Shown here one piece after another: positions 3,816 through 27,680 of a DNA stretch of 64,000 nucleotides (position 1 is the stretch's first letter; each line of letters starts with the position of its first letter). This DNA is from Clostridia bacterium (GTDB taxonomy: Bacteria > Bacillota > Clostridia > TANB77 > CAG-465): NCBI GenBank assembly GCA_045652705.1, contig JAZRUV010000039.1:2895-66894 (forward strand), given 5' to 3'. The translations under genes were made by a program, and so were the position numbers. The notes beneath the pieces are model-generated. The model was not told where the DNA came from. It searched no databases and saw only the letters and a list, made by a program, of their open reading frames with translations.

Positions 3816-3817
3816 AT

Positions 3818-4558: not shown

Positions 4559-4564
4559 TTTTTA

Positions 4565-4593: not shown

Positions 4594-4611
4594 TACGTTG
4601 GAGGGGAGTAT

Positions 4612-4851
4612 ATGGCAAGCAGAAAGTCAAGAAGAGGCAACACAACCAAGACTATTAATATGAAACCGGGAGCTAAAAAACAACTTGTTGTAATGCTAAT
4701 ATTTATAGTGTTAATGATATTTACAGTAACACAAGTATATTATCTGGCTAAGTACACTTTGGGTTATGAAGTTCCTGCTGAAAAATTAAAGGTATATAGA
4801 TGGGTAAGTATGCTTTTGCAAGATAGTGAGCCTGTCGCTCCTGAAGAATAG
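4612..4851 (+). CDS. Small single-pass membrane protein, unknown function
   Basis: SD GGAGGGGAG is present. A basic N-terminus is followed by one hydrophobic helix 'LVVMLIFIVLMIFTV'. Confidence 0.5.
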   Translation: MASRKSRRGNTTKTINMKPGAKKQLVVMLIFIVLMIFTVTQVYYLAKYTLGYEVPAEKLKVYRWVSMLLQDSEPVAPEE

Positions 4852-4866
4852 GAAAGAGGGATTATT

Positions 4867-5205
4867 ATGAATTTTTATGATAAAATACATGCTTTAGTGA
4901 GAGATTTGAAAGATACGCCAGAATATACAAACTATATGGCATTGAAAGAAAGAGTAAAAGCTGATAGTGAGCTAAGTGAAAAGATTAAAAAATTTAGACT
5001 ACGTCAAAGAGAAGAACAAATGAAACATATTAGCGGAACCGCTATGGATGAAACAGTAAAAAATGAATTGCAACAAGAATATTCTTTAATTATTCAAAAT
5101 CCACTTGCTGTAGAGTTTTTTCAAGCTGAGATAAAATTAGATGTTTTGCTTGCAGATATGCAAAAAATACTAGGTGAAGGACTTCAGGATGTAATAGAGT
5201 TTTAA
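4867..5205 (+). CDS. YlbF/YmcA-family (UPF0342-like) regulatory protein
   Basis: 'FYDKIHALVRDLKDTPEYTNYMALKERVKAD...' and 'IIQNPLAVEFFQAEIKLDVLLADMQKIL' match the YlbF/YheA family pattern. Confidence 0.6.
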   Translation: MNFYDKIHALVRDLKDTPEYTNYMALKERVKADSELSEKIKKFRLRQREEQMKHISGTAMDETVKNELQQEYSLIIQNPLAVEFFQAEIKLDVLLADMQKILGEGLQDVIEF

Positions 5206-5206
5206 T

Positions 5207-5776
5207 ATGGAAGAATTGGCGAAAGAAATTTTAAAGTATTTAGGAAATTTACATACGAAAGTAGAAAAAAAGCAAGGGTTTATGGGGAACTACTATAGTC
5301 CTCTTATAGATACAATATACATTGCTGAGGATTTGAAAAACGTAAAGGTACAAAATGGCTCAGAAAATATAAATAAAAAAGCAGCGGAGCTTATTATGAT
5401 GTGTCATGAATGCGCACATTCTGTACAAAGTAAAGGCCTGCACTTATTAAATACGTTGTTTGCTAATCTTTCTATGATATTGTCTGTCATATGTATTTTG
5501 ATCGCGCTTTTGGGGACAAGTAAGCTGTGGCTTATAATGGTGACAAGCGCCGCTTTAATAGCAAGTATTACGATTAGACTAATATTAGAAGTTGGAGCTA
5601 TAAATGGTTCTGCTAAGTTGGCTAAAGAAGTAGTGGATAACGAATTTGTACAGGGGGTATCTCACGAAGGGGTGCAAGAAGGTATAGAATATATAAAAAA
5701 GCATAAATTATTTGCTTTGGTTCAAATGATTTTAGATAAAATAGTGTTTCTAATCTTAGTACTAATTACAATATAA
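5207..5776 (+). CDS. Membrane protein with an HExxH motif (putative zinc metallopeptidase)
   Basis: It has an 'HECAH' motif followed by three or more hydrophobic helices. It starts 1 nt after the previous stop. Confidence 0.4.
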   Translation: MEELAKEILKYLGNLHTKVEKKQGFMGNYYSPLIDTIYIAEDLKNVKVQNGSENINKKAAELIMMCHECAHSVQSKGLHLLNTLFANLSMILSVICILIALLGTSKLWLIMVTSAALIASITIRLILEVGAINGSAKLAKEVVDNEFVQGVSHEGVQEGIEYIKKHKLFALVQMILDKIVFLILVLITI

Positions 5777-5857
5777 ATGGAAAATAAATATCACCTTAAT
5801 TTAACTTTAGGGTGATATTGTTGGTATTATATAACATATACATATATTGGTGATTAT

Positions 5858-6568
5858 ATGAAAGTGTTTATGATTACAAAGAAAAAAATAATGTTGTTTG
5901 TTTGTTTTAGTGCGTGTTTGTGTGGTATGGTATTTATAGTTGCTAATGGTACGGTTCAAACAAGTACTACTCCAGCTACAAATAAGACGATAATATTAGA
6001 CGCGGGTCATGGAGTGCCGGATTATGGAACAGAAAGTGTAAACGGAACAACTGAACAAGAACTAAATCTAGCAATAACTTTAAAATTACAACAATTACTT
6101 GAACAAAGTGGAACAAAGGTAATACTTACTCGTTCTGATGACAACGGAATATATGAAGTAGACAAGGACTCTATACGTTCAAAAAAGATAAGCGACATGA
6201 AAAACAGAGTATATATTGGAAACAACTCGGATGCAGACATATATGTGTCAATTCATATGAATTATTATGCAGATTCGCAGTATAGTGGATGGCAAACTTT
6301 TTACCAGTCAAGGTGTGAAGATAGTAGAAAATTAGCAACAATAATACAGCAGTCACTTAGTGAAAATATAGGACAGAACAAGAGGAACCCTATGGCTATA
6401 AAAGGTGCGTATATAATGGATAAGGTAAATATTCCAGCTACTATTGTAGAATGCGGTTTTTTATCTAATAAAAACGATGAAGAAAAGCTAAAAACAGATG
6501 AATATCAATCGAAGCTGGCGTGGGGAATTTATATAGGGATACAAAAATATTTCAATAATATTAAATGA
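5858..6568 (+). CDS. cwlD: Germination-specific N-acetylmuramoyl-L-alanine amidase CwlD
   Basis: An N-terminal TM is followed by 'IILDAGHG', 'IYVSIHMN' and 'IVECGFLSN' (Amidase_3 zinc ligands). The overall layout resembles B. subtilis CwlD. Confidence 0.75.
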   Translation: MKVFMITKKKIMLFVCFSACLCGMVFIVANGTVQTSTTPATNKTIILDAGHGVPDYGTESVNGTTEQELNLAITLKLQQLLEQSGTKVILTRSDDNGIYEVDKDSIRSKKISDMKNRVYIGNNSDADIYVSIHMNYYADSQYSGWQTFYQSRCEDSRKLATIIQQSLSENIGQNKRNPMAIKGAYIMDKVNIPATIVECGFLSNKNDEEKLKTDEYQSKLAWGIYIGIQKYFNNIK

Positions 6569-6686
6569 ATGGTATATTGAACAACTCATTTAATAACAAA
6601 ATTACAAATGTTTTATTTTTTCTATAAAACATATTGTGATTTTTCTTTTTTTAGTATACACTTGAAAGTGTAAAATGGGGGGACAA

Positions 6687-7907
6687 ATGAAAACAGGTAA
6701 AAAAGATGCAGTAAGTTTAATAGTATTAGTAATAACAATTATTATTATGATAATATTGGCGGGGCAAATAATACTTTCTTTAAATAATGTAAGTATAATA
6801 GACAAAGCTAATGAGGCAACGCTTAAATCGGATTTGCAACATATAAGACAAGCTATTGTAATGGAGAAATTAGAAAGTAGCGCAGATGAAAGAACGCCAA
6901 ATTATAATAGTATAATACCTGAGAAATATAAAGAAAAAATTATAGTGTTGGCTGACGAACGTATGTTATATATATGTAAGCCAAACACGGAAGAGGGAAG
7001 GATTGCACGTGAGGCTGGCTTTATAGTAATTGAAAAAACAGTACTGCCTATAATGAATACAGTTGAAAAAATACAAGCGGTGGCTGAAGAATATGTTGCT
7101 TCTGGAAACTCTACATCAGACGCAAGTTTGTTGGTCGTTCAGTATATAAGAAATTTGAGTTATAGTGGAACAACTTGGACTACTGTGGCGGGCGCGGTTG
7201 ATGCAAATTTTGTACAACATGTTAATAGAAGGTTGGGAATGACAAGCGCGCAAGTAAAACAAGAAATAAAGGAATTAAATGATCCAATAACAGGAGAAAA
7301 GATAGACTTTATTCATGCAATAGCGTCGCTAAATGGCTATATGTACAATACACAAAGTTCCCAAACTAAGAAGATTTTAGCGGAATATTCTGCTTGGGCA
7401 GGAGATTTGTGTACACTGATGGAACAAGTGGTTAATTATGCTTCGTCAAAATCATATAGCTCGCCATATACAGAGCAAGCTAAAAAAGATATAGAAAATT
7501 ATATAGATAGTATGTTGGGGACTAAAAATGAAAGTTCTACATTTGGAATGGCAGATATGTTGGCGGATGCGGATGCTGTTGCAATGTATAATATGATTTT
7601 AGAAGGAAAAACAATAAGCGAAACAATATATGATTACTATTGCGGAGACTATAATTGCAAAAATAGATATAACATATTTGCGGACTATCTATTAGATTTA
7701 TCTACAAATGCACTAGCGGTAAATACTGTTACAAAAGTGACAGAGCCTAAAGAAAAAGTAGCATATTTGTTTATGGGAAAAACAAATGTATTGTATACGG
7801 GTTACGCAGCAGCTATAACGAGTGTAGGAACAGTTACTTCACTTCCTGAGGAATTGTGTGGCATTATTGCCAATAAGTTTTCTCAATATATAGAAAATAA
7901 TATATAA
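6687..7907 (+). CDS. Hypothetical protein with a pilin-like N-terminal hydrophobic helix
   Basis: 'KKDAVSLIVLVITIIIMIILAGQIILSL..IIDKANEATLKSDL' resembles a type IV pilin or pseudopilin N-terminus but lacks the canonical G-F-T-L-x-E. An alternative upstream ATG lies at 6675. Confidence 0.5.
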   Translation: MKTGKKDAVSLIVLVITIIIMIILAGQIILSLNNVSIIDKANEATLKSDLQHIRQAIVMEKLESSADERTPNYNSIIPEKYKEKIIVLADERMLYICKPNTEEGRIAREAGFIVIEKTVLPIMNTVEKIQAVAEEYVASGNSTSDASLLVVQYIRNLSYSGTTWTTVAGAVDANFVQHVNRRLGMTSAQVKQEIKELNDPITGEKIDFIHAIASLNGYMYNTQSSQTKKILAEYSAWAGDLCTLMEQVVNYASSKSYSSPYTEQAKKDIENYIDSMLGTKNESSTFGMADMLADADAVAMYNMILEGKTISETIYDYYCGDYNCKNRYNIFADYLLDLSTNALAVNTVTKVTEPKEKVAYLFMGKTNVLYTGYAAAITSVGTVTSLPEELCGIIANKFSQYIENNI

Positions 7908-8027
7908 ATATTTGGTGGGGCGTTTCAGCCTCGCTAAATATTTATATGTTCAAATAAAAAGCAAGTAGACTGTGGATACAGATATATATTAAATGTGATT
8001 TTGAAATAAAAAGATTGGAGAAGAATA

Positions 8028-8501
8028 ATGCAAGTGCAGGAAAGATTTATGAAAGAAGCAATAAAGGAAGCTATAAAAGCAAAGAAAATAGATGAAGTGC
8101 CTATAGGAGCTGTTATTGTAAAAGAAGATAAAATTATATCTAGAGGACACAATTTGCGTGAAAGTAGACAGAACAGTTTAAAACATGCTGAAATAATTGC
8201 TATAGATAGGGCGTGCAAAAAACTAAATAACTTTAGGTTAGAGGATTGTGATTTGTATGTAACAGTTGAGCCGTGTTTAATGTGTTCGGGAGCCATAGTT
8301 CAATCGAGGATTAGAAAAGTGTATTTCGGTGCTTGCGATGAGAAGTATGGAGCTGTAACTAGCGTGGCTAATGCTTTTGATATTAAGTCCAACCACAAGG
8401 TAGAATTTGAGCAAGGAATTTGCAAAGATGAGTGTGAAGGGTTAATGAAAGACTTTTTTAAGGAGCTTAGAAAAAGGAAAAAAGAGTGTAAGAATAATTG
8501 A
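8028..8501 (+). CDS. tadA: tRNA-specific adenosine deaminase
   Basis: The CDA zinc motifs 'HAE' and 'PCLMCSGA' are present, and the size and sequence are typical of TadA. Confidence 0.9.
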   Translation: MQVQERFMKEAIKEAIKAKKIDEVPIGAVIVKEDKIISRGHNLRESRQNSLKHAEIIAIDRACKKLNNFRLEDCDLYVTVEPCLMCSGAIVQSRIRKVYFGACDEKYGAVTSVANAFDIKSNHKVEFEQGICKDECEGLMKDFFKELRKRKKECKNN

Positions 8502-8515
8502 TTTAAATAACAATA

Positions 8516-8545
8516 AAACCATTCTTTTACAGAATGGTTTTGTTT
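8516..8545. terminator. Hairpin plus T-tract between tadA and the tRNA remnant (can act on both strands)
   Basis: AAACCATTCT / AGAATGGTTT stem followed by TGTTT. Confidence 0.55.
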
Positions 8546-8591
8546 GGTGCACCAAAAGGGACTCGAACCCCCAACCTTCAGATTCGTAGTC
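8545..8591 (-). pseudogene. 3' half of a disrupted tRNA-Arg(ACG): anticodon loop to CCA; island attL side
   Basis: The reverse complement is GACTACGAATCTGAAGGTTGGGGGTTCGAGTCCCTTTTGGTGCACCA. Its acceptor and anticodon-stem strands pair perfectly with the 5' half at 21144-21182. Confidence 0.85.
8583..8591. repeat. att core copy (left), TTCGTAGTC
   Basis: It is identical to 21144-21152 and corresponds to the anticodon loop region of the split tRNA. Confidence 0.8.
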
Positions 8592-8844
8592 GTACACCAA
8601 GCGTCAAAATAAGTATATCATTAAGCACTAGAAAAATCAAGCAAAAACGATACAAGCATTGAAAATACTGCGAAAAATCTTATTACCTTTGATAAAACAA
8701 AAATTTATTTTAATTTAAAAAAATATAAAAAAGTTTAAATTAGTTTAAGAAAAATTACAAAAATTGGGGTAAAATTGGGGTATAGTATAAGCAAATAAAT
8801 TTTATTCCCCAATTTTGGGAAAGGTAAATCAAAGGTAAAAATAT

Positions 8845-9198
8845 ATGGAAAAAATAAAACCAAGTTACTATGCAATAATACCTGCAAAGGTAAGGTATGA
8901 TGAAAATCTAAATAATGGACAAAAATTGTTATATGGTGAAATAACAGCACTAACAAATAAGAAAGGATATTGTTTTGCAGGAAACAAATATTTCGCAAGA
9001 TTATATAATTGTGATCCAAACACAATATCTAGATGGATAAGCACCCTTGTTAAGGAGGGATATCTAGAAGTAAAGATAGTAAAAAATAGTGAAGATTCAA
9101 AAAGAAAGATATACATATTAGATAATAGCAGACCAACTCGTAAGAAAAATATAGACGATGAACTAGACTATAATGATTATATAGATGTTGGATATTAA
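8845..9198 (+). CDS. Helix-turn-helix protein typical of Firmicutes mobile elements (replication-initiator / DnaD-N-terminal-like HTH)
   Basis: 'YYAIIPAKVRYDENL..GQKLLYGEITALTNKKGYCFAGNKYFARLYNCDPNTISRWISTLVKEGYL' is a winged-HTH pattern common at the N-terminus of element replication proteins. Confidence 0.55.
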   Translation: MEKIKPSYYAIIPAKVRYDENLNNGQKLLYGEITALTNKKGYCFAGNKYFARLYNCDPNTISRWISTLVKEGYLEVKIVKNSEDSKRKIYILDNSRPTRKKNIDDELDYNDYIDVGY

Positions 9199-9208
9199 TA
9201 TATGACTT

Positions 9209-9297
9209 CTATACAAAATTGTAGAGAGGGTATTATCAAAAATGACTATAGGTACTCTACAAAAATGTAGAGAAGGTATCTACAAAATTGTAGCATA
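9209..9297. repeat. Three iteron-like 25-bp repeats (CTAYACAAAAWTGTAGAGARGGTAT)
   Basis: The copies lie at 9209-9233, 9255-9279 (22/25 identical) and 9278-9297 (partial). Each contains the inverted repeat CTACA-N4-TGTAG. Confidence 0.7.
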
Positions 9298-9468
9298 TAA
9301 TAATATAAATTAAATATTATAAATTATTATTACAAGTTATTATATTAACAAAAATGTATTTTGAGAAAAATGTAGAATTTAGATAAATTTGGACTACAAC
9401 TCCAGATTTCTCTAAAAAGTACTAGACAGAATATTATTTTTGTGTTACACTTGTTTTGAGGTGTTAAG

Positions 9469-10740
9469 ATGGAAAAATATAGAGCAAGAACAATAGAAAA
9501 GAGTTTACAGTCTTTAATAACAAAATTCCCTGTTATAATGGTAACAGGACCAAGACAAGTTGGAAAAACAACATTGCTTAATTATATTGCTGTTAACTCT
9601 AATAAAAAAATAAATTATGTGTCTTTAGATAATTTATTGGTAAGACAACAAGCAATAGAAGACCCAGAACTATTTTTAAGAACATATGAAGCTCCAGTAA
9701 TAATAGATGAGTTTCAATATGCTCCTGAACTATTGTCATATATAAAAATAAAGGTAGATGAAGCAAGAAAAAATGCAATGTTTGGTGATGGTAAAGAAGT
9801 AGAGACTATGTATTTCTTAACTGGTTCTCAAGTATTCCAAACTATGGCTAATGTTAGTGAGTCTCTTGCAGGAAGAATGGGTATTTTGGACTTATATGGC
9901 TTTTCTACAAGGGAATTAGAAGGTGTAGAAGAAACAATATTTATTCCAGATGTTAATCTTTTAAAACAAAAAGAAAAAGTAAAAAAATTATCTACTAAAA
10001 AATTGTTTGAAAGAATATTAAACGGAAGTTATCCAGAAGTTGTAAATGGAAAAACAGATGCGGAAAAAACATCAGCATTTTATGAAACATATATTAGAAC
10101 GTATATTGAAAGGGATGTTAGACAATTAATAAATGTAAAAGACGAGACTAAATTTTTAAGATTTATATCGTCTGTTGCAGCGAGAACTGCTCAAGAATAT
10201 AACGTAAGTGATATAGCAACAGACGTAGGAGTAGATAGTAAAACAATTGATGAATGGGTGTCTATTCTTAAAAATACAAATCTTATATATATGTTACAAT
10301 CATACTCTAATAACAATGTTAAAAAAGCAATTAAAAGACCAAAGATATATTTTATGGATACAGGCCTTGCATGTTATTTAACTGGTTACCTAAATGCAGA
10401 GACTCTAGAGAAAAGTGCATACAATGGTGCTATATTTGAAACATATGTAGTTAGTGAAATTATAAAAACATTTACTAACAACGGTATGAGCCCTAGAATG
10501 AGACTATATTATTATCGAGACAGCAATGCTAAAGAAATAGATTTATTAATTATTTATGATAACAAAGTATATCCTGTAGAAATAAAGAAAAGTGCAAACC
10601 CTGGAAAAACTGCCTTCAAAAACTTTGATGTTGTGGATAAGTTTGGTCTAGAAGTAGGAGATGGAATCGTACTTTGTATGATAGATGAAATATTTGCAGT
10701 AGAAGAAAACAAATATTTTGTTCCTATAGAGTATATTTAA
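9469..10740 (+). CDS. AAA+ ATPase of the DUF4143-containing family
   Basis: Walker A is 'VTGPRQVGKTTLL' and Walker B is 'VIIDEFQ'. The C-terminal region 'YYRDSNAKEIDLLI...VYPVEIK' is typical of the AAA_14/DUF4143 architecture. Confidence 0.75.
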   Translation: MEKYRARTIEKSLQSLITKFPVIMVTGPRQVGKTTLLNYIAVNSNKKINYVSLDNLLVRQQAIEDPELFLRTYEAPVIIDEFQYAPELLSYIKIKVDEARKNAMFGDGKEVETMYFLTGSQVFQTMANVSESLAGRMGILDLYGFSTRELEGVEETIFIPDVNLLKQKEKVKKLSTKKLFERILNGSYPEVVNGKTDAEKTSAFYETYIRTYIERDVRQLINVKDETKFLRFISSVAARTAQEYNVSDIATDVGVDSKTIDEWVSILKNTNLIYMLQSYSNNNVKKAIKRPKIYFMDTGLACYLTGYLNAETLEKSAYNGAIFETYVVSEIIKTFTNNGMSPRMRLYYYRDSNAKEIDLLIIYDNKVYPVEIKKSANPGKTAFKNFDVVDKFGLEVGDGIVLCMIDEIFAVEENKYFVPIEYI

Positions 10741-10764
10741 AAAAATTAATTGTGAGGTAAAACT

Positions 10765-11256
10765 ATGTCAAAAGGTGATTCGAATTCTAAATTAAGATAC
10801 AATATACATGAACGAATGCAAGAATTTTTTGATGATGTAATTTTAAAAAGAGGATTGAACTATTTCTATGAAGAAAGAGTTCAAGATGTTTGTAGAGTAA
10901 AAGGAGATTTTTATTCTACAGTAGAAGGTACATACCCATATACTATAAAAATACAAATTAAAAATAACGACATTGAAGAAATGTATTGTGATTGTCCTTA
11001 TGCAGAAGAAGGTTGCTATTGTAAACATATGGCGGCGACTTTAATATATATCGAACAAAATTTAGAAAATATACTTACAGATAAAGACATAGAAAAACAA
11101 ATTGCAAAAAGAACAAAAGAAATTGAGAAGCATTTAAGTAATATTTCCGAGCAACAATTAAGACAATACATAGCAGATATTGCTTTAGACAATGAAAATA
11201 TATATAGCGATTTAAGAACAATGAGCACAATGAATAATTTTCACATAGTAAAATAG
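10765..11256 (+). CDS. SWIM zinc-finger protein
   Basis: 'CDCPYAEEGCYCKHMAA' fits the CxCx(n)CxH SWIM signature. It lies 24 nt downstream of the ATPase gene. Confidence 0.65.
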   Translation: MSKGDSNSKLRYNIHERMQEFFDDVILKRGLNYFYEERVQDVCRVKGDFYSTVEGTYPYTIKIQIKNNDIEEMYCDCPYAEEGCYCKHMAATLIYIEQNLENILTDKDIEKQIAKRTKEIEKHLSNISEQQLRQYIADIALDNENIYSDLRTMSTMNNFHIVK

Positions 11257-11353
11257 AAAAAATAACAAACAACAGTAACTCTAATTTTAAACAAGAGATA
11301 CTGTTGTTTGGCTTATATGTAGTATTTGACTTAAAATAACCAACTTGGTCATC

Positions 11354-11393
11354 GTATTACAAATGTAATACAAAATTGAAATTGTAATACAAG
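11354..11393. promoter_or_regulatory. Candidate operator: palindrome GTATTACA-AA-TGTAATAC plus a third TGTAATACAA half-site
   Basis: The palindrome is seen directly at 11354-11371 and the half-site at 11384-11393. Confidence 0.35.
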
Positions 11394-11589
11394 TTTAGTG
11401 GCTGTGCCTCTAAGATGCGCGTCAATGTGTCTTACATCTATTCCTGCATTAAGTGAGAAATAAGCCTAATAATACAGATAAATATATGTTTTTGCGTAAA
11501 CAGAGTGAACATTAATAAAACATATAAATAAGATGAAAAGGTATATGTAATGAAATAAAAATCAATGGTGAAAAACACACTATCTATAG

Positions 11590-11618
11590 TTGCAAAAAAA
11601 TGTTGTTTATGATATATA
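11590..11618 (+). promoter_or_regulatory. Sigma-A type promoter of the cargo operon (TTGCAA - 17 nt - TATATA)
   Basis: The -35 is at 11590-11595 and the -10 at 11613-11618, about 45 nt upstream of the ATG at 11663. Confidence 0.45.
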
Positions 11619-11662
11619 TCATATGAGTAAGTGTATCTAGAAACATGAACAAAGGAGTATTT

Positions 11663-12346
11663 ATGAATTTAATACAAAAGATTAAGCAAATATTTAGTTT
11701 TAATAAGACAAAACAACTTGAAGCACCTAAAGAAATACCGATAAAAGTAGATAAGCCTAAAATAAACCTTTTCGAAGACTTAAGCAAACAAACAATAGAC
11801 TTAACAAAGGAAGAAAAATTAAAACAAATATTAAAAACGGCGGGATGCAAAAAAGAAATTTTTTGGCGTGTAGATGATTTAGAAAATATAGATGCAGATA
11901 ATTTAAGAGAAGTATTGAAACTATTAAGTAGTATAAAATTAACAAAATATGAACTAAATGTTGTTTTAGGACAAAATATAGAATTATTAAATACAAATTA
12001 TATATTTATAGATGCTAACATACAAATATTAAAAGAATATCTAAAAGATGAAATCGTATTAAAGAACATTATATATACAAATCCTTTTGTTTTAACTAAC
12101 AGAATAGAAACGGTAATATTAAATGTAAAAGATAGATTTGATAATATAGGTTTATCGCAAAAAGAACAAATAAATATACTAGATGAAAACTCAAACATAC
12201 TTTCATTAGATATAGAAGTGTTAAATCAAAGTATAAATATAATAAAACAATATTATTTAGCAGATGCTAAAAAAATTATATTAGAAGATCCTAATATAAT
12301 AGGAATAACAGATATAAATGTATTAAGAGGTTATATCGAAAATTAA
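11663..12346 (+). CDS. Hypothetical helical-repeat protein (mTERF-like impression), cargo gene 1
   Basis: SD AAGGAG lies 5 nt upstream of the ATG at 11663; the ORF track start at 11645 lacks an SD. It shows repeated roughly 30-aa units such as 'TNPFVLTNRIETVILNV', 'ENSNILSLDIEVLNQSI' and 'EDPNIIGITDINVL'. Confidence 0.55.
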   Translation: MNLIQKIKQIFSFNKTKQLEAPKEIPIKVDKPKINLFEDLSKQTIDLTKEEKLKQILKTAGCKKEIFWRVDDLENIDADNLREVLKLLSSIKLTKYELNVVLGQNIELLNTNYIFIDANIQILKEYLKDEIVLKNIIYTNPFVLTNRIETVILNVKDRFDNIGLSQKEQINILDENSNILSLDIEVLNQSINIIKQYYLADAKKIILEDPNIIGITDINVLRGYIEN

Positions 12347-12356
12347 GAGGTATTAT

Positions 12357-13145
12357 ATGGATGAACAAGCAAAGTTAATGCTTTATAGACAACTACAAGA
12401 AATGAGTGAATTAAATCAAAAAGAAAACGCAGCATCACTTATTTCTGAACAAGAGTTTTTAGCATTATCAGCTAAAGAAGCATTAAAATACACATTTGAA
12501 TATAGAGATAGAGAAACAGATTTTGGCGAAAATATTTACTATTTAGAAATGCCAGATATGGATTTTTCAGGTCAAGATTTAAGTGATGTTCGTATTAGTA
12601 AGTTTATGCTTTCTCGTATGGAAGATGGTAAAAGAGTACCAAGTAAAATAAATGTAAATGGTACAAGAATAGCAATAAACCTAAATGGAATAGGAATAAG
12701 TGAGCAGTCACAAGATGAGTTGGGGATTTCAGACCAAGTTATAGATTTTAGCAATGTGGATTTTAGAGGCTGTGAAATAAGAGGTATATTACCTGACGAA
12801 TATGCAGAAGAAACAAAAGCAAAAACAAGAGGACAAATAACTGTAACAGGAAGAGAAAATCTAGATGAAAGATATTTACAAAGAAGGAAAGAACATCACC
12901 TTATGCCGGGCGAAAGAAAAGTTACAGAAAGAGCATATGCAAGACTACTTTCAGGTGAAACATTAAAAGGAACTAGAGACCAAGATAGAATAGACTTTAC
13001 AGATTATGACTTGGAAGGTTTATCTGAAGAACAAATAAGATATCTAATGGATAAGAAAGAAATAACATTAGACACATATCAAATAGAGTCAAATAGTGAT
13101 TATGTATCACAGTATAGAAAGCGGACAATTAAGAGAAGAAAGTAG
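12357..13145 (+). CDS. Hypothetical protein with pentapeptide-repeat-like stretches, cargo gene 2
   Basis: SD GAGGT is present. The stretches are 'MDFSGQDLSDVRIS' and 'IDFSNVDFRGCEIRG'. It lies 10 nt after gene 1. Confidence 0.55.
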   Translation: MDEQAKLMLYRQLQEMSELNQKENAASLISEQEFLALSAKEALKYTFEYRDRETDFGENIYYLEMPDMDFSGQDLSDVRISKFMLSRMEDGKRVPSKINVNGTRIAINLNGIGISEQSQDELGISDQVIDFSNVDFRGCEIRGILPDEYAEETKAKTRGQITVTGRENLDERYLQRRKEHHLMPGERKVTERAYARLLSGETLKGTRDQDRIDFTDYDLEGLSEEQIRYLMDKKEITLDTYQIESNSDYVSQYRKRTIKRRK

Positions 13146-14592
13146 AAGAAGGATAATATATGAATATGAGAAAGGAAATGCTACATATTTTAGTCAACAT
13201 ATCGATGAATTAGATGCTTGGACACGAGGAGAGGTATTTGAAGAAGTATTACTAATGGCATCCGAAAGAGAGGATATAGAGTTTTTAAAACAATACTTTT
13301 GTGAAGCTGGTTACATACATGGTTTACAAGATCAAATAATAATAAAAGCATATAAATCAGGAGATATAGAATTCGCACAGCAACATTTTGATGAAATTGG
13401 TCTTGCGGGAGGTTGGCCGTTGCAAAGGCAAATAATGATGACTTCCTATGAAAGAGGAGATATAGAATTTGTAGAAGAATACATTAATCGAGTTCATTTT
13501 GAGATCCGAGGGGAAATACTAAAAACAGCCTATGAGAAAGAAGATATGACATTTGTAGAACGACATCTCTCACATACTGACAGTCATACAAGGCTTGAGT
13601 TAGCAATAGCCGAAAGAAAAAAGGGAAAAAATGAACTAGTAAGAAAACTATTAATGGTAGAAAATAGTAAAAAGGAGCAACAAGGGAAAAAGACAGTATC
13701 TTGTTCAGGAAAAATGTTGAATGAAGCATTGTCTCAAGGAAAAATAGATAAAGATTTTATTATAGTATTAATAAGGTTAGGTTCTGGTTTAGACTACGTT
13801 GCTTATAATAATGTTGATGGTTCAACACCCGAATACATACCAACACTATATAAAGCCTTAAAATTAGAAGATGCTACTGTTAGAAAAGAAATTATAACAG
13901 AAATGTTAAAATCAGGAGTAAGTATTGATTCTAAATATGTAGCAAGAACGTATCATTGGGACAAAAGTGTTGAAAAAACAGAGATTCACTGCTTAGATGC
14001 AAATAATGGTGAATTAGTTCAAATAATGAGTGAGTTAGGTATGGAAGTGCCACAGGAAAAGCAAAATATAACCGCACCTAAAAGAGGGGAAAAGCAACCT
14101 AAAGAGCAAAAGCAAGATAATAGAGTTTTAGTTTGTGACTTCTTAACTCACGAGGTAGGATTAAATGAAGAAGAAATTAAAAAACTAGAAACTACATATA
14201 GGGGTTGGGGAAGAGATTTATATAGTCTATCAACAGAAAGACTTGGTATGCAAAAAGCAATTTTGGATTCAGTTGGTGGTACAAAAAGAGCATTTACAAC
14301 AGATGCTAAAGTATTAAATAATGACCCACAAGTTTTATATTCAAGACTAATGTTTTATAGAGAAAGTGGTATAACTGTGATGCCAGACAGATTATATACA
14401 ACATTAGGAATATCTAAAAAAGGATTTGCTAAAAATTTCGGAAGTAGAGTTTTAGAAAAAGGAAATATGGAAGATTCGGATTATGAATATAAACTAAAAC
14501 AAGAACTACTAAAAAGATACCCAATGCCAGAAACTAGAGATGAACTAAAGAGAACATTGGAAGAATTGAATAAAGAAGAAATTGGAGGATAG
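13102..14592 (+). CDS. Hypothetical multi-repeat protein, cargo gene 3
   Basis: It has four to five tandem roughly 32-aa repeats 'Y(E/K)xGDIEFxxx(H/Y)(F/I)': 'KSGDIEFAQQHF', 'ERGDIEFVEEYI', 'EKEDMTFVERHL' and 'EREDIEFLKQYF'. The C-terminus has mTERF-like 'LGLNEEEIKKL', 'DPQVLYSRL' and 'LGISKKGF'. The start is uncertain (GTG 13096 or ATG 13102). Confidence 0.55.
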   Translation: MYHSIESGQLREESRRRIIYEYEKGNATYFSQHIDELDAWTRGEVFEEVLLMASEREDIEFLKQYFCEAGYIHGLQDQIIIKAYKSGDIEFAQQHFDEIGLAGGWPLQRQIMMTSYERGDIEFVEEYINRVHFEIRGEILKTAYEKEDMTFVERHLSHTDSHTRLELAIAERKKGKNELVRKLLMVENSKKEQQGKKTVSCSGKMLNEALSQGKIDKDFIIVLIRLGSGLDYVAYNNVDGSTPEYIPTLYKALKLEDATVRKEIITEMLKSGVSIDSKYVARTYHWDKSVEKTEIHCLDANNGELVQIMSELGMEVPQEKQNITAPKRGEKQPKEQKQDNRVLVCDFLTHEVGLNEEEIKKLETTYRGWGRDLYSLSTERLGMQKAILDSVGGTKRAFTTDAKVLNNDPQVLYSRLMFYRESGITVMPDRLYTTLGISKKGFAKNFGSRVLEKGNMEDSDYEYKLKQELLKRYPMPETRDELKRTLEELNKEEIGG

Positions 14593-14596
14593 ATTT

Positions 14597-15400
14597 ATGC
14601 CATTATATAGTAAAAAAGAGCCATATCGTTCTATGTTAGAAGAATTAGAAGAAGAAAGAGCGTTTACTTTCAAAGGCTCATATATATTAGATGCAGATGA
14701 AAAAATGGGACAAGCAAGTAAAGAACTAGAAAGAATAATAAATAAAAATACTAAAGGTAAATTGCCACCAGGTTTATCTAAAGAAGAAACACAACGAGAA
14801 ATGGAAAGATTATCTACAGGTATAATAGATAGATTAAGAAGTGCAAACGGAAAGTTCAAAGCGTTTGTTTATTCTAAAGGTGGCTCTAGAACTTCTGCAA
14901 ACGAAGCACAACAAACAGAATTATCACAAAAAGGTGCAAACGTGGAATATACAGTTATGGTGGTAAATGGTGTAGCAATATTAGAGCCGTTAGGACAAGA
15001 GGATAATGCTACATATATAGCAGAAGAAAGGGAAGGTCTAGAAGAAGCAATAACTCAATTTGGCAGAGGTGAGGCTATAGATAGCGGAATAATCCAAAAA
15101 GTAATTCACGATAGAAAAGAAAGAGAAGGATACAACTATGGTTCTAACCATATATTACAATTATTAGATTATGCTATTGACGATCCACAGAGACTATTAC
15201 AAGTTGTTAGAGAGCATAATGGTTGTGGGCTAAAGAGAATATCTCAAAATATGCCTACTACAGTTGATGCTATTCATTCGCAAACAGATTCAAGAGTTGA
15301 TGAAATGGGAATTAGTGCTGAAGAAACAATAAAAGCAGGAACAGAATTGGAAAGAACACAAGAAATAAAAGGAAAGGAGACTCCTTATGAAAGTGTATAA
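14597..15400 (+). CDS. Hypothetical acidic protein, cargo gene 4
   Basis: SD GGAGGA lies 8 nt upstream of the ATG at 14597. It starts 4 nt after the gene 3 stop. No motif was recognised. Confidence 0.55.
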   Translation: MPLYSKKEPYRSMLEELEEERAFTFKGSYILDADEKMGQASKELERIINKNTKGKLPPGLSKEETQREMERLSTGIIDRLRSANGKFKAFVYSKGGSRTSANEAQQTELSQKGANVEYTVMVVNGVAILEPLGQEDNATYIAEEREGLEEAITQFGRGEAIDSGIIQKVIHDRKEREGYNYGSNHILQLLDYAIDDPQRLLQVVREHNGCGLKRISQNMPTTVDAIHSQTDSRVDEMGISAEETIKAGTELERTQEIKGKETPYESV

Positions 15401-15620
15401 TGATGAAGAGATAATAGGACTATGTGAGGCTTATCAAGTATATCAAATACTTCCAGAAGATTCACAAAGAAAAATTCCTAAAGAGTTTGTTGAAGAAATG
15501 GAAAAGTATGCTAAATACGATGTAGGCGTAACAATAAATTGCCCTTTGGATATAGGAACTGAAAAACTATCAAGAGAAGGTGTTAAAAGAATAGCATATA
15601 TGTGCTTATTCTTGAAATAG
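15387..15620 (+). CDS. Small hypothetical protein, cargo gene 5
   Basis: SD AGGAGA is present, and the gene overlaps gene 4 by 14 nt. Confidence 0.5.
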   Translation: MKVYNDEEIIGLCEAYQVYQILPEDSQRKIPKEFVEEMEKYAKYDVGVTINCPLDIGTEKLSREGVKRIAYMCLFLK

Positions 15621-15692
15621 GGGCTGACACATAGTAGAAAAAGATATAAGGTATAAATAAAAAATAATTTATAAATTTAAGGAGGTTATATT

Positions 15693-16301
15693 ATGGGATT
15701 TATAGATGATTTACAAAAAAATGTTAAGAGTGAAGAGGATATTGTAGGACATGTAGATAAAGACTTAGAAGACTTAAAAGGATTAGAAGTGGGTTCTTGC
15801 TTACACGAAGATTGGAGACAAACAAGAAGAAATGAAGACGGTACATATGAACCAAGATGGAAAAAGGTTAAAGACCCTAATTTCAAATTTGTTGAATCTG
15901 ATACTTGCAGAAAAACAGAGGAAGGTGTAGTCGAAATAGACATTGCTAACAGAAGTTTTGGTGAGTTATCTGCAGATTGGCAATTTGAAAATTTAGAAGC
16001 GGGAAAAGTTGTTGCTAGATTAGTTGGTGACAAAACTGAATTGACGCCAGAAGAAGTAGAACAAATGGCAAGTGAAATACACGATGAATGGTTAAAAAGA
16101 AATGATTGGGTATTTGATCCAAACTACGGAAACCCAGCTCAAGCAGTTCCTTATGCAGAACTTAGCGAAGAAGAAAAGGAAAAGGACAGAGCTCAATTAA
16201 AATTCGGCTTATCTCTAAATCAAAGATTGCTTTCAGGAGAAGTAAAAAAACAAGATCTAAAAGAGAAATTTAAATCTAACGAAGAACAAGTGGTAGAATA
16301 A
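15693..16301 (+). CDS. Hypothetical protein with RyR-domain-like modules, cargo gene 6
   Basis: A strong SD AAGGAGG is present. 'LHEDWRQTRR' and 'IHDEWLKRNDWVFDPNYGNPAQAVPYAELSEEEKEKDR' resemble the bacterial RyR-domain consensus (HxxW...YG...PY.eLseeeKe.DR). Confidence 0.5.
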   Translation: MGFIDDLQKNVKSEEDIVGHVDKDLEDLKGLEVGSCLHEDWRQTRRNEDGTYEPRWKKVKDPNFKFVESDTCRKTEEGVVEIDIANRSFGELSADWQFENLEAGKVVARLVGDKTELTPEEVEQMASEIHDEWLKRNDWVFDPNYGNPAQAVPYAELSEEEKEKDRAQLKFGLSLNQRLLSGEVKKQDLKEKFKSNEEQVVE

Positions 16302-16308
16302 ATTATAT

Positions 16309-16345
16309 TAGCGAGTTAAGTAAAAATTAACTCGCTATTTACTTT
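16309..16345 (+). terminator. Rho-independent terminator of the cargo operon
   Basis: TAGCGAGTTAA / TTAACTCGCTA stem followed by a T-rich tail. Confidence 0.65.
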
Positions 16346-16392
16346 CTGCAATTAAATATTATATAATTTAATCATTAAACGAAGGAGGAATT

Positions 16393-17673
16393 ATGAGAAA
16401 GAATAAATATAACGAATTGTCTTCTACAATAATGTTAATAATAGGATTAATATGTATTGTATTTGGAACTGTAGTTCAATTTTTATTAAAAGATACAAGA
16501 GATGTTTTAAGCTATACTATTACCTATGTGGGTAAATATATGATTTTTGCAGGTATCGTTTCCTCATTATTAAGCATTATTACAAAAATTGCTCGTATAT
16601 CTAGGGATAATACAATAATGAACTTAAAATCATCAGGCAAACTTGTTTATGCCACTAATTTAAAAGTATGGAAAAATTACTATTGGGGCGTAGATAGAAA
16701 ACATTGGTGTCATCTTTTGGTAGAATGGGAAGATCCTATTACTCATCAAAAGTATGAATTTAGAAGTGACAAATTATGGGTTGATATTGAGCCTATAATT
16801 GCAGATAAAAAAATCGAAAAGATACCTGTTTATATTGATAATAAGAATCCAAAAGTTTATTTTGTTGATGTAGATGAGCTAACTCCATCAAACACTTCTG
16901 AGAAAAAGAATAAAAAAAGTATTGTTGGTAACATTATTCTTATCATAGTTACAATAATTGTATTATCTACATTAGGAATTTTTGCTATTTTGAAATTCGC
17001 TCCAAACAATTCAACACTTGACGCTCAATTGCCAAATAGTAACGAACAGAGAATTCCTAACGAACTAGAAGAAAATGAGTGTGCTCCATTTATTTGTTAT
17101 GATGGTATTAGTGATATACAGAGTAAAGATTTAATACCTAAAGCCAATCAAATAAATAAAAATTTGCGTAGATTGTTAGTTCTTATAAGTTTAGGCGATT
17201 GGGAAAGTGGCGAATATACATTACAAGATATCGACAAGTTTGCATTACACTCTTTAATAGCAAACAGACTTTTTGATGAAGAAGATTATTTAATACTAGA
17301 AAACGGTATAGATAATGCAGCTCTTTCATCTCAAGATTACGAAAATATATTTGAACAAATAACAGGGATTACAGATGTTAAAGCTTATTTTGAAAACTAT
17401 TCATTAGAAAAAACTAAAGATGCTAACAAATCTGTATATATGGAAGATGATGATAAAACTTATTATATTGTTCCTTTTGGTGTAGGTATGGAACTCGGTG
17501 TTTATGGCGTTGCGGTAGTATCTGATGTAACTGTACAAAATGATAGAACTTTATTTTCTATTAAAACTTGTATCGTAGATTATGAAAACAATACATATAC
17601 ATATACTAAAACAACTACATTTGAAATTCAAACAAATGGTTTAAGAGTATATAGCTTCAAAGTAGAAAAATAA
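16393..17673 (+). CDS. Membrane protein with a DUF3592-like segment and a large C-terminal soluble domain
   Basis: SD GAAGGAGG is present. Two N-terminal TMs are followed by 'YWGVDRKHWCHLLVEWEDPITHQKYEFRSD...IPVYIDNKNPKVYFVD' (DUF3592-like) and a third TM 'IILIIVTIIVLSTLGIFAIL'. Confidence 0.5.
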   Translation: MRKNKYNELSSTIMLIIGLICIVFGTVVQFLLKDTRDVLSYTITYVGKYMIFAGIVSSLLSIITKIARISRDNTIMNLKSSGKLVYATNLKVWKNYYWGVDRKHWCHLLVEWEDPITHQKYEFRSDKLWVDIEPIIADKKIEKIPVYIDNKNPKVYFVDVDELTPSNTSEKKNKKSIVGNIILIIVTIIVLSTLGIFAILKFAPNNSTLDAQLPNSNEQRIPNELEENECAPFICYDGISDIQSKDLIPKANQINKNLRRLLVLISLGDWESGEYTLQDIDKFALHSLIANRLFDEEDYLILENGIDNAALSSQDYENIFEQITGITDVKAYFENYSLEKTKDANKSVYMEDDDKTYYIVPFGVGMELGVYGVAVVSDVTVQNDRTLFSIKTCIVDYENNTYTYTKTTTFEIQTNGLRVYSFKVEK

Positions 17674-17731: not shown

Positions 17732-18703
17732 TTATATAGCATCAATACTTCTGCCATTTGACTCTTGAACAATTTTGCCATCTAAATCTATTTGTTCTTT
17801 AACTAATCCCTGCAACGATGTAAGAAAATCATTTGATTTGTCTTCTTTTTTTCTTGTAAGCTCTCTAGCATTAATTATTGCTTTTTGTTCTGCCTCGTCA
17901 ACTATTTCAGAGAGGCTTTTGCCTGGATTTTCTCTTTTAGCTTTCATCGGATGCATTATCGCATTATATAAATTATCAAAGCTTTGTGATAATTCTTCAA
18001 ACTTTTCGTGACCAAAATATTGCAAATGTTCATCTGTTCCATTTAACTGAGCATTTCTAAGAGCTTTAACCATTTTTTCATTTTGAAGCAAAGCTTGTGC
18101 ACTTTCGTTAAACTTACCAAAATAACTACGAGATATATATTCTCTTCCAAGTATTCTTGACATTATTTTCGATTCATCATCGCAATTAATGGCTTCCTCT
18201 ATACCAGTATGAAATTCTTCTCCATTAGAATATTTGCCAGTTTGTCCATCTTTATCCATATTTGTTTTAGCAATGCCCTCTCTCTTTTTCAGTTTCCCTT
18301 TTTCAACTTGATATTTATTATTATATGACTTTACTAAATGCCCCATTTCATGTACTAAAGTTGCAAGCACTTTCTCGTCATTTAAATCAGTTGAGCACAT
18401 ATATATTAAGTCTTTCGAATAAAATTTTCCGTCTCTATCAATTGGCATACTTTCAGAAAAACCTACTATTGTTGCTGGTATTGCTTGTGCCTCCATATCT
18501 GGAAAATATTCCTGATAATAATTTCTAGCATTTTCTCCGTCCTTTTGTAAATGGATTTCACAATTTGAAATTGCATCTAAAATCGTTTTTTCGTGTTCTT
18601 TTCCAAAATGCTCAATGAATGCTGGGATTATCTTGTGTAATGTCTCCATTAAATCATCGCTATATTCATATTTTTCTTGTAAACCATTAAAATAATCTTC
18701 CAT
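17732..18703 (-). CDS. Hypothetical cytoplasmic protein with a zinc-metalloprotease HExxH motif
   Basis: 'LATLVHEMGHLVKS'. The ATG at 18703 is preferred (AGAAGG lies 7 nt upstream); the ORF could extend to 18751. Confidence 0.5.
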   Translation of the reverse strand: MEDYFNGLQEKYEYSDDLMETLHKIIPAFIEHFGKEHEKTILDAISNCEIHLQKDGENARNYYQEYFPDMEAQAIPATIVGFSESMPIDRDGKFYSKDLIYMCSTDLNDEKVLATLVHEMGHLVKSYNNKYQVEKGKLKKREGIAKTNMDKDGQTGKYSNGEEFHTGIEEAINCDDESKIMSRILGREYISRSYFGKFNESAQALLQNEKMVKALRNAQLNGTDEHLQYFGHEKFEELSQSFDNLYNAIMHPMKAKRENPGKSLSEIVDEAEQKAIINARELTRKKEDKSNDFLTSLQGLVKEQIDLDGKIVQESNGRSIDAI

Positions 18704-18855
18704 TTTAAAACCTTCTTTTAATACACATCTCTTTTTTAATAATTTTACCATAAAATTTTTATATGTCTAGCGTTTCAAAACAAATAAAAGTAATTGGGCA
18801 GTTTAAATACTACTCTTTTATTGTGCCTTAAATTGTAATAATAACAGCTGATTCT

Positions 18856-19235
18856 GTGTGAAATTGTGTAAAAAAGCATTGTTTTTATAAATTTTGTCCG
18901 ATTTTTGATGTTTCAACTGTTTATATAAGTGAAGGGGTAAATAATATAATTTATAAAAAATCAAATAAATTTTTAATATTTTGTCCGACTTTCACTGTTT
19001 CAATCGATAGGGAAGTGAAAGGGTATAAAACTAATTGTAACAAATAAAGAAAATTGTGTTATTTTTATAAATCTTTTAATTATTTATATGTATCAATGAC
19101 TGTTAAGTAATGAAGGGATAGAAAAATTGATACTAAAAACAAAGAAGATTATGTGAAATTTTGTAAAAAGGCATTATTTTTTATAATTTTGTCCGACTTT
19201 TAGTGTTTGAAGGATATATAGGAAGTGAAGGGGTA
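18856..19235. repeat. Four diverged tandem units (period about 85-115 bp) with conserved boxes TTTGTCCGAC and GTGAAGGGGTA
   Basis: Box 1 lies at 18893, 18980 and 19188. Box 2 lies at 18929, 19015, 19110 (degenerate) and 19225. Box 2 starts 35-37 nt after box 1 starts. The outer units 18856-18939 and 19151-19235 are about 80% identical. Confidence 0.7.
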
Positions 19236-19642: not shown

Positions 19643-20924
19643 ATGAAGAAGATGAAAGAAAGGGCTAAAAAGGGCACTATAAGCGTTAGAAAAAGAAATA
19701 ATGGTTATGAAGCAAGAATAACTTTAGATATTGATGGTATAAAAAACTATAGATTATCTAGGTTTAGTTCTGTTTCAGAAAAGGAGGCAAAAAGAAAACT
19801 TGGTGAAGCAATAGCTGAGGCTTACATTAGGGCATCACAAGGAAAGGGGTTAAATGAACAAGAAACAAATAGGACATGTTCTAAAAGTTTGAGAAAATTA
19901 AAAGAATATAACAATGAAGATATTACACAAGAAATTATTTCTAAAGCAAAAGAGTGTAATAAGTTTAACAAGGTTGCTTTTGACTGGTTGGAAAAAAGAA
20001 GACAAGAAACAATGCCTAATAGAGCAAAAAGATTAAGCAGTAAAACTTTTGAACAATATGTATATAATGTTAAGTCTAATTTAATACCTACGTTTGGAGA
20101 ATACTTAATAAATGAAATTACCAAAGATATGTTTCAAAATTATATAGATAATAGAAATGCACCTAAAATGGCAAGGGATAATTACATTACGATGAAACAA
20201 ATAATGGACTTTGCAAGAGGGCAAAATTTAATTAGTATTAATCCTATTGTAGATATTGTGTTACCACCAAAGAGAAGAAAAGTGATTAGTTATTTAACAT
20301 CTGAAGAACAAGTAAAGTGGTTAGATTGTGCCGAGCAAGATGGTAGAGATTGGGCACTCATCTTTGCTACCATAATTCAAACTGGTATGAGACCAGAAGA
20401 ACGGTTGCGGCTTGAAATGGAAGTGTGTAAATTTTAAAGATGAGACTATATGTGTAGAAAATGCATATAAAGAGATTCAAATATTTGATGAGAACTTTAA
20501 TGCTATTGGATATAAAAAGGCAGATAGTAGTCTTAAAACTAAAGAAAGTTATAGAATTATACCAATGTCGCCAAGGTTATTTAAAATGTTAATTAAGTTA
20601 AAAGAAAGCAAAAAAGAAAAGGCAAAAAGGAATAATGTAAGGTGGTCAGATGAGGAATATGTTTTTCTAAATGAAAACGGAGGACCTTATGTATCTGAAA
20701 GATTAACAAATAAAATACCAGCATTTATTAAAAAGTACAAATTGGGGAAAGTAACTTTATATGGTTTAAGGCATAGTTTTGCAACATTATGCAGTGAAAG
20801 AGGTGTACCTGATATTGTGTTAAAAGAACTAATGGGGCACTCTGACTCATCTACAACAAAGAAGTATTATATACATGTTACATTAACAAGAAAAAGAGAA
20901 GAAATTAATAAAATTTGGGGATAA
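19643..20924 (+). pseudogene. int: Tyrosine recombinase (phage-type integrase) interrupted by one frameshift near 20399-20412
   Basis: ORF 19643-20437 ends '...TGMRPEERLRLEMEVCKF*'. The +1 frame continues '(NGCG)LKWKCVNFKDETI...' through 'GLRHSFAT', 'GHSD' and 'KKYYIHV' (catalytic R, H-x-x-R, H, Y). Confidence 0.8.
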
Positions 20925-20960: not shown

Positions 20961-21037
20961 TGGTGCGGCAGAAGGGATTTGAACCCCCAACCGACGGATT
21001 CGTAGTCCGTTACTCTATCCAATTGAGCTACTGCCGC
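20961..21037 (-). tRNA. tRNA-Arg(ACG), complete, carried inside the island
   Basis: The reverse complement is GCGGCAGTAGCTCAATTGGATAGAGTAACGGACTACGAATCCGTCGGTTGGGGGTTCAAATCCCTTCTGCCGCACCA. It forms a full cloverleaf with anticodon loop CUACGAA and an encoded CCA. Confidence 0.9.
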
Positions 21038-27657: not shown

Positions 27658-27680
27658 GGTGAAGGGAGGAAAATGTTAAA

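Follow-up and report, generated by a model that had tools for sequence, protein, structure and literature searches.

A repeat-protein operon on an island at tRNA-Arg

The window analysed here, a stretch of 64,000 nucleotides (nt) of a Clostridia bacterium with a G+C content of ~30%, contains six same-strand open reading frames (ORFs), termed g1 to g6, between positions 11645 and 16301 (Table 1). An earlier reading of this DNA, made from its letters only (the sequence-only reading), had taken these ORFs for a six-gene operon on a mobile island, built of repeat-domain proteins without a recognisable enzyme, and had proposed them as a candidate undescribed system. Here we examine the operon, whose genes g1 to g5 are referred to as the cassette, together with its relatives, which are denoted by locus (L) and protein (P) numbers.

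The positions of the six ORFs were reproduced as claimed, and so were their spacings, namely, 10 nt, an overlap of 44 nt, 4 nt, an overlap of 14 nt, and 72 nt, which require that the ATG codons at 13102 and 14597 are used as starts for g3 and g4, respectively. The start of g1 is the second ATG, 11663, rather than 11645, as indicated by its alignment with the L005 orthologue and by an AAAGGAG Shine-Dalgarno site; a good Shine-Dalgarno site precedes every gene but g3. The promoter proposed upstream of g1 matches the consensus at 8 of 12 positions, hence its absence from the list of a consensus scan. We nevertheless accept it, because a stretch of ~75 nt that includes it is ~85% conserved ahead of the g1 orthologue at L005, a locus whose flanks are otherwise unrelated. 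The terminator expected at the end of the operon was found as well. On these sequence features, we regard 11590-16337 as one transcription unit and a real operon, whose six products are all predicted to be cytoplasmic, with neither a signal peptide nor a transmembrane (TM) segment. Farther upstream, the 388-nt intergenic region that precedes the promoter contains, at ~11355-11392, an inverted repeat with perfect 8-bp arms, GTATTACA-AA-TGTAATAC, as well as a third copy of TGTAATAC. This element, which is not conserved in L005, may bind a regulator.

The mobile setting of the operon was also borne out. The 3' half of a tRNA-Arg(ACG) gene is present as a 47-nt direct repeat, with 83% identical copies at 8545-8591 and 20961-21007, the flanks being tadA and tRNA-Arg, and a tyrosine integrase lies next to the right copy. 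The 12.4-kb region between the two copies is a small integrative island at tRNA-Arg.

Table 1. Features of the operon and of the island that carries it.
Feature	Position	Strand	Basis and remarks
Left island boundary	8545..8591		Displaced copy of the tRNA-Arg(ACG) 3' half
AAA_14/DUF4143 ATPase	9469..10740	+	Pfam; full-length PADLOC PDC-S01 match, E 3.4e-109
SWIM zinc-finger protein, 163 aa	10765..11256	+	Pfam SWIM; PADLOC PDC-S62, E 5.6e-13
Operon promoter	11590..11618	+	TTGCAA, 17-nt spacer, TGaTATATA (extended -10); sequence; kept in L005
g1, mTERF-like, 227 aa	11663..12346	+	Pfam PF02536; MTERF1 structures; orthologues
g2, N-terminal part of split gene	12357..13145	+	44 N-domain representatives; alignment; AF2 model
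Frameshift site splitting g2/g3	13087..13096	+	Dropping the base at 13095 restores a 744-aa ORF
g3, C-terminal part of split gene	13096..14592	+	Repeats; ankyrin profile; no Shine-Dalgarno site
g4, new alpha/beta protein, 267 aa	14597..15400	+	Invariant motifs; adjacency or fusion to repeat protein
g5, small, 77 aa	15387..15620	+	Conserved in L005, L006 and L020
g6, acidic, 202 aa, one RyR domain (aa ~121-190)	15693..16301	+	PDB RyR repeats; Pfam below cut-off
Intrinsic terminator	16309..16337	+	Hairpin with 11-bp stem, then T-rich tail; hairpin scan
Membrane protein, three predicted TM segments	16393..17673	+	C-domain common to the L005 locus
Tyrosine integrase, two ORFs (19643-20437 and 20412-20924)	19643..20924	+	Pfam; frame analysis
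tRNA-Arg(ACG), integration site, right island boundary	20961..21037	-	tRNA call and direct repeat

The large repeat gene is split by a frameshift

The operon had been described as consisting of six separate genes, yet five are present, as g2 and g3 are the two halves of one gene of ~744 amino acids (aa) that was split by a 1-nt frameshift. First, joining in silico the g2 frame (to 13094) with the g3 frame (from 13096) gives a protein of 744 aa, which aligns with the 741-aa protein P0012 as a single high-scoring segment pair (residues 1-734 versus 1-728, expect value (E) 3e-150), and likewise with P0017 and P0027. Second, the counterpart of g2 plus g3 is a single ORF of 725-978 aa in L001, L005, L008 and L009, and in nearly all of the 44 representative proteins with the N-terminal domain of g2 (see below) this domain starts a protein of 670-1200 aa that continues into the modules of g3. 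Third, g3 lacks a Shine-Dalgarno site, and the last ~16 codons of g2 form an out-of-frame tail. Since the joined ORF aligns end to end with its relatives, the 44-nt overlap between g2 and g3 is the scar of the frameshift. Programmed frameshifting was considered for this junction, where neither a slippery sequence nor a stop-codon context is evident, so that mutation or sequencing error is the likelier cause.

The island integrase is frameshifted likewise, near 20400-20440 and within its conserved TGMRxxE...LxW segment, while the long backbone ORFs (1256 and 1193 aa, 23887-31262) are intact, which favours real decay of the island. Against this, the frameshifts could instead be sequencing or assembly errors. 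With both the putative sensor gene g2g3 and the integrase frameshifted, the system in the window is probably inactive or decaying, and the island may have lost its ability to excise owing to the split integrase. Indeed, we give even chances to the view that this copy is a non-functional remnant, in which the integrase and the main cargo gene are pseudogenes of a decaying island, a view that is compatible with the other explanations considered below. It would account for two frameshifts in only 12.4 kb next to intact backbone ORFs, and both the missing Shine-Dalgarno site of g3 and a SWIM gene that matches the N-terminal end of PDC-S62 only are consistent with it. Yet the promoter, the Shine-Dalgarno sites, the terminator and all other ORFs are intact, and short stand-alone g2-like proteins occur elsewhere too.

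The cassette is conserved across diverged Clostridia

The most informative relative is L005, found in a Clostridia metagenome-assembled genome (MAG) whose backbone genes are 91-93% identical to those of the window. Its cassette is intact and shows identities of 57% for g1, 65% and 48% for the fused g2g3 gene, 70% for g4 and 77% for g5, but it is found at a site other than that of the window, namely, between rpoC and dnaX. In this locus g5 is followed by two unrelated genes (269 and 71 aa) and then by a homologue of the C-terminal domain of the membrane protein that lies downstream of g6 in the window; the last ~225 aa of the latter are 45% identical to the product of L005 12172-12837, the gene that closes the L005 cassette. 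In the window this membrane-protein gene has a promoter-like site of its own, at 16338-16367.

Partial versions of the cassette were found at other loci. The g1 orthologue immediately precedes the g2 gene in L005, L008 and L004; what follows it is the fused g2g3 gene in L008 and a protein with the C-terminal part of g2 plus g3 in L004. The fused g2g3 gene is followed by g4 in L001-3 and in L009; g4 is followed by g5 in L006; and L020 encodes one 1118-aa protein with g2, g3 and g4 modules, followed by g5. Fusion of g4 to the repeat protein is seen in P0030-32 as well as in L020. Thus, the possibility that the genes do not travel together, which would have spoken against a system, was not borne out: g1 to g5 are co-conserved in L005, L008, L001-3, L006, L009 and L020. 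Synteny and gene fusions link the modules in diverged Clostridia, and we therefore take the cassette to be a real functional unit. From these comparisons, the conserved unit consists of g1, g2g3, g4 and g5, plus the membrane-protein domain in two loci. It departs in three ways from the six-gene block originally envisaged: g2 and g3 count as a single frameshifted gene, g6 is an accessory of this locus, and the membrane-protein gene, the seventh, has a C-domain in common with L005. The unannotated neighbours of the different loci showed no homology among them.

Modules of the g2g3 protein

Residues 1-225 of g2 form a conserved domain, with a three-helix cap and a short beta-strand region, whose invariant residues are Y10, Q12, R50, P66, F136, C139, G143, Y173, D216 and D218. 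Its AlphaFold 2 (AF2) model is confident over residues 1-145, and searches of PDB, fold libraries and BFVD returned no significant match for it. The pentapeptide-like character that the sequence-only reading had ascribed to g2 is unproven, a relationship being weakly suggested by non-significant hints: a match to the QnrB1 sequence at E 0.7, and short strands at residues 60-145 of the AF2 model, for which the top Foldseek matches, to pentapeptide or synthetic solenoid folds, include 6UVI and 2J8K, at E above 1 and a TM-score of at most 0.33. Pentapeptide repeats form a tandem A(D/N)LXX array that adopts a right-handed quadrilateral beta-helix fold. The g2 N-domain resembles such beta-solenoids (Qnr/MfpA) in a few xDFxx/xDLxx turns and in its short modelled strands, but it lacks a long tandem array, with runs of only 2-3 units in the alignment and no Pfam pentapeptide family at E up to 1, and both its helical cap and its invariant motifs (YRD, FxGC and DYD) are foreign to the family. 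An OTU-like protease was also considered and rejected; the match, to a nairovirus OTU, was non-significant (E 0.25) and the aligned part is devoid of the catalytic Cys region.

The N-terminal part of g3 holds ~five degenerate units of 28-32 aa with the motif YExGDxEF (aa ~20-175), which agrees with the tandem 'YExGDIEF'-type repeats previously noticed; relatives carry 12-13 copies with a strict 28-aa period. These 28-aa repeats match designed helical-repeat proteins only, and weakly (E 1e-3). The middle of g3 (aa ~200-290) consists of two ankyrin repeats, which a single-sequence Pfam scan did not detect, but whose profile matched DARPins and natural ankyrin structures with a best E of 1.5e-9 (240 chains at E up to 10). 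As in ankyrin-repeat proteins, this module has the typical 'xxIVxxLLxAGAdvn' helix-loop; unlike in them, there are ~two repeats only, embedded in a larger protein and beside a separate, undescribed 28-aa YExGNxEFV repeat. The C-terminal domain of g3 is conserved, helical and ~150 aa long, ends in a YPMP motif, and has no match in Pfam or, at E up to 10, in PDB. Its supposed resemblance to mTERF failed every test: comparison with g1 by hhalign gave a probability of 9%, no PDB match appeared, and the Pfam mTERF family was found in none of 16 members of the family (0/16) at E up to 1.

The small proteins g1, g4, g5 and g6

For g1 the assignment to mTERF did hold. It reaches 28.7 bits with Pfam PF02536 (mTERF), above the gathering threshold (curated cut-off 23.1), the L005 orthologue is likewise annotated PF02536 above the Pfam threshold, and the g1 profile matches human MTERF1 chains in PDB with E from 1.4e-3 to 6e-3 over ~145 residues. 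The mTERF fold, otherwise studied in organelles, is a left-handed superhelix of three-helix repeats that binds nucleic acids. While g1 shares with this family (human MTERF1, PDB 3MVA, 5CRJ) the repeated ~30-aa helical units, it is bacterial, is with 227 aa only about half as long as an MTERF1 array, and carries an N-terminal tail rich in Lys.

The conservation of g4 is of a different kind. Invariant motifs (YSxGGS, EPxGQxNNAT, GR, KxxH, YNYxSxHI and a C) are spread over the protein, the invariant residues being S93, G95, G96, N124, E130, Q134, N137, T139, R157, K168, H171, N180, S183, H185 and C210. Such a density of invariant polar residues suggests a catalytic or ligand-binding site. Hence, of the view that the operon encodes binding-type domains only and no enzyme, one part stands, in that no known enzyme model matches g1 to g6, and the other is doubtful, given the enzyme-like invariant residues of g4. 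This protein adjoins the repeat protein in five loci and is fused to its C-terminus in three relatives; it has no Pfam, PDB or fold match, even with profiles of 4 and 8 sequences. The start of g5 overlaps the end of g4 by 14 nt, and g5 follows g4 in 4 loci, with no match to a toxin-antitoxin family. It is the best-conserved member of the cassette (identity 77% in L005, 74% in L006 and 45% in L020, in which the g4 fusion precedes it). That g4 and g5 match nothing recognisable was borne out in family, phage-protein and structure searches.

By these searches, the g2 N-domain, the 28-aa repeat, the g3 C-domain, g4 and g5 are new by assignment, that is, in no family of Pfam, NCBIfam, PHROGs, PADLOC or PDB, and profile searches placed none of the cassette proteins in the ordinary characterised families that would have made a new system unnecessary. 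Newness here means the absence of an assignable family or system, and is no claim of a demonstrated new mechanism.

Two RyR-like HxxW modules had been seen in g6, of which one is supported. Residues 121-190 match the repeat domains of RyR1/RyR2 in PDB by phmmer (E 2.9e-5 to 3e-4) and the bacterial structures 3NRT and 6UAG at E 0.06-0.08, and the protein shares the H-x-x-W and 'VPY-x-EL-x-EEEKxxDR' motifs of the RyR domain (PF02026). It differs from this family in scoring under the Pfam cut-off (20.8 bits, E 4.5e-4, gathering threshold 27.4), in having support for a single module, and in standing outside the conserved cassette. With no homologue in related loci or in phages, g6 is, as far as sequence comparison goes, a window-specific accessory gene.

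The ankyrin, RyR and mTERF domains have a mainly eukaryotic distribution, which on general grounds would fit effectors of a eukaryote-like type that are delivered into the cells of a eukaryotic host. We consider this highly improbable: g1 to g6 have no signal peptides or TM segments, no secretion system accompanies the cassette in any of the loci, its hosts, where named, are free-living or gut Clostridia/Lachnospiraceae MAGs, and the conserved core is made of bacterial-only new domains.

Distribution and genomic context

The family is very rare. A HMMER search of 1.84 billion representative proteins found 44 with the g2 N-domain, all from Clostridia or Lachnospiraceae MAGs wherever an organism is named, and in 5.8 billion sequences g3 and g4 each matched only two clusters other than their own. 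The 185,579 species genomes searched contained 3 loci, all in MAGs (Clostridia bacterium, uncultured Clostridium sp. and uncultured Lachnospiraceae bacterium). Searches of 2.9 million viral contigs, 50,697 phage records and 72,556 plasmids yielded no relatives, one spurious repeat match aside, which is a MORN-variant repeat protein of a Helicobacter prophage that shares the 'YENGN' motif only and has a different period. Scans of metagenome contigs for cassette relatives returned nothing.

Screening with PADLOC for known defence genes left the cassette proteins unmatched, and matched their neighbours to PDC candidates. In the window these are PDC-S01 and a fragment of PDC-S62, and in L005 it is PDC-S13 (E 5e-82). 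Moreover, the site that the L005 cassette occupies is filled differently in the window, where rpoC and a response-regulator/HD gene flank the gene of a DUF3800 protein (31446-32351; PADLOC DUF3800_VII, E 2e-25); in L005 only the last 33 codons of the DUF3800 gene remain, and a ~10-kb variable region (3050-12900) with PDC-S13 and the cassette fills the site. This rpoC/DUF3800 site looks like a defence hotspot. The PDC-S01, PDC-S62, PDC-S13 and DUF3800-type genes thus share the genomic habitat of the cassette as direct neighbours, but no cassette protein matches any PADLOC model. The description of the cassette as island cargo holds for the window and is not intrinsic, as most other genomes place it among housekeeping genes.

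Being cargo of an integrase-bearing tRNA island would suit a module that islands, plasmids or phages carry and that benefits the mobile element itself, by counter-defence or host takeover, for instance by interference with host transcription through the mTERF-like protein. In the same direction point a DnaB-like helicase and a sigma factor next to the L020 fusion, a sigma-70-type gene downstream in L004, and a weak match of one relative to the polyvalent-protein domain LPD37. Nonetheless, we consider this explanation unlikely, since the viral, phage and plasmid collections hold no relatives, the spurious match aside, and hallmarks of mobile elements are not seen at most loci. As to the observations themselves, the g2-g3-g4 fusion of L020 is next to genes for a DnaB-like helicase, whose N-terminus is long and acidic, and for a sigma-70 family protein (1-1923, 6634-7408), and in L004 a sigma-70 region-4 gene lies just downstream, at 2364-2867; these neighbours may indicate a mobile-element or transcription-related context. 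LPD37 was found in 1 of 32 relatives (E 0.009), and membership among the polyvalent proteins of conjugative elements and phages was rejected, this lone weak match being accompanied by no viral or plasmid relatives.

A candidate conflict module

Tentatively, and with somewhat less than even confidence, we propose that the cassette is an undescribed biological-conflict module of the sensor-effector type, probably for defence against phages or other mobile DNA. A conflict role is suggested by several features: the cassette diverges fast relative to the backbone, differs between copies in repeat number and in accessory genes, has moved from site to site, is very rare and patchily distributed, and has defence candidates as neighbours. 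Between the window and L005, the cassette proteins are 48-77% identical versus 91-93% for the backbone, and the sites differ; across the family the repeat number varies from 5 to 13; and the accessory genes are g6 in the window and the 269-aa and 71-aa genes in L005. Of the original suggestion of a defence or conflict module, the part that fits is the placement by PADLOC candidates at two independent sites, and the part that does not is that the cassette proteins match no defence model.

In such a module, the repeat/ankyrin region of variable copy number would sense, or serve as a scaffold for, a protein of the invader or of the host; the effector could be g4, as an unrecognised enzyme; g5 may act as the tightly coupled small partner of g4, either inhibitor or adaptor; and g1, by analogy with nucleic-acid-binding mTERF proteins, might direct or execute a block on nucleic-acid transactions. 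An analogy can be drawn with the repeat-sensor plus effector systems of bacteria (NLR-like/STAND), since the cassette likewise evolves fast, occurs in a defence-island context and has a large protein whose variable repeat array is joined, by coupling or by fusion, to a separate C-terminal domain; unlike these systems, it contains neither a nucleoside triphosphatase (NTPase) or STAND module nor an effector domain that could be recognised. It is tempting to go further and to imagine an NTPase-free immune system, in which the giant repeat/ankyrin protein senses the invader and activates g4, until then held by g5, while g1 blocks transcription or replication of the invader. We regard this specific scheme as improbable; if true, it would for the first time assign a function to a bacterial mTERF protein. 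More broadly, a defence or conflict system of this kind would have a mechanism without the usual NTPase, nuclease or TIR parts, and would give a bacterial context to mTERF. Our search of the literature returned nothing relevant on bacterial mTERF, ankyrin, pentapeptide or RyR conflict systems.

Several points weigh against a defensive role. First, the proposal rests on guilt by association, and the associated PDCs are themselves, to our knowledge, single-gene candidates without a known mechanism. Second, g1 to g6 match no PADLOC model at E up to 1, nor do the fused L005 protein and the membrane protein at E up to 0.01, and g1 to g6 match no PHROG or NCBIfam model either. Third, the fold of the putative effector could not be assigned, as an AF2 model of g4 from 3 sequences had a pLDDT of 53 and Foldseek returned nothing. 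Fourth, g1 and g5 are missing from some loci, and L001, L006, L008 and L009 are flanked by housekeeping genes. Fifth, a distant branch of the g2 N-domain, with N-domain and repeats only, has the fixed position pgeF-[gene]-ldcA-UDG and is found without g1, g4 and g5; this branch looks vertically inherited and cellular rather than defensive.

The housekeeping flanks and the distant branch would be expected if the proteins formed a cellular scaffold or regulatory complex outside any conflict, serving DNA/RNA transactions or the cell envelope in spore-forming Clostridia, of which the island merely captured a copy. In favour of this, the distant branch is syntenic in many MAGs, between pgeF and ldcA/UDG and near addB and ogg, housekeeping or sporulation genes flank most cassette loci, and mTERF and ankyrin are binding modules. 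We nevertheless consider it rather doubtful, as a cellular complex would not be expected to be so extremely rare and patchy (3 loci in 185,579 species genomes), to occupy different sites in closely related genomes while diverging much faster than their backbone, to be adjoined by defence candidates at two sites, or to tolerate a frameshifted copy such as that of the window. In the MAG contigs of the distant branch (L013-L019), many housekeeping genes (addB, LD-carboxypeptidase, UDG and dapB) are called as 2-5 consecutive fragments, which could reflect poor assembly or a lineage in which a stop codon is read as sense.

Returning to the proposed conflict module, the rarity of the family and the frameshifted copy in the window limit the latter as an exemplar, and the intact type found in L005 is the better experimental object.

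Other features of the island and of the window

From left to right, the island carries an HTH_36 protein, the AAA_14/DUF4143 ATPase, the SWIM protein, the operon, the membrane protein, an HExxH protein, three 56-nt repeats and the split tyrosine integrase; an Rfam scan of the island found tRNAs only. The SWIM protein covers the N-terminal ~130 of the 566 positions of the PDC-S62 profile only, which suggests that its gene is probably truncated or a fragment. The HExxH protein (339 aa, 17732-18751, minus strand) has an HEMGH zinc-metalloprotease motif and a weak similarity to a PHROG metalloprotease (E 0.004), and is divergent from the integrase side. Between its gene and the integrase, at 18861-19211, the three direct repeats of ~56 nt share the core 'ATTTTGTCCGAyTTT'; they may serve the island as iterons or operators. 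At the left end of the window (18-4558), a short TraG P-loop fragment is followed by Tad/Flp-pilus-like genes, which encode a ParA/CpaE-like ATPase, a CpaF-type T2SSE ATPase and a T2SSF protein.

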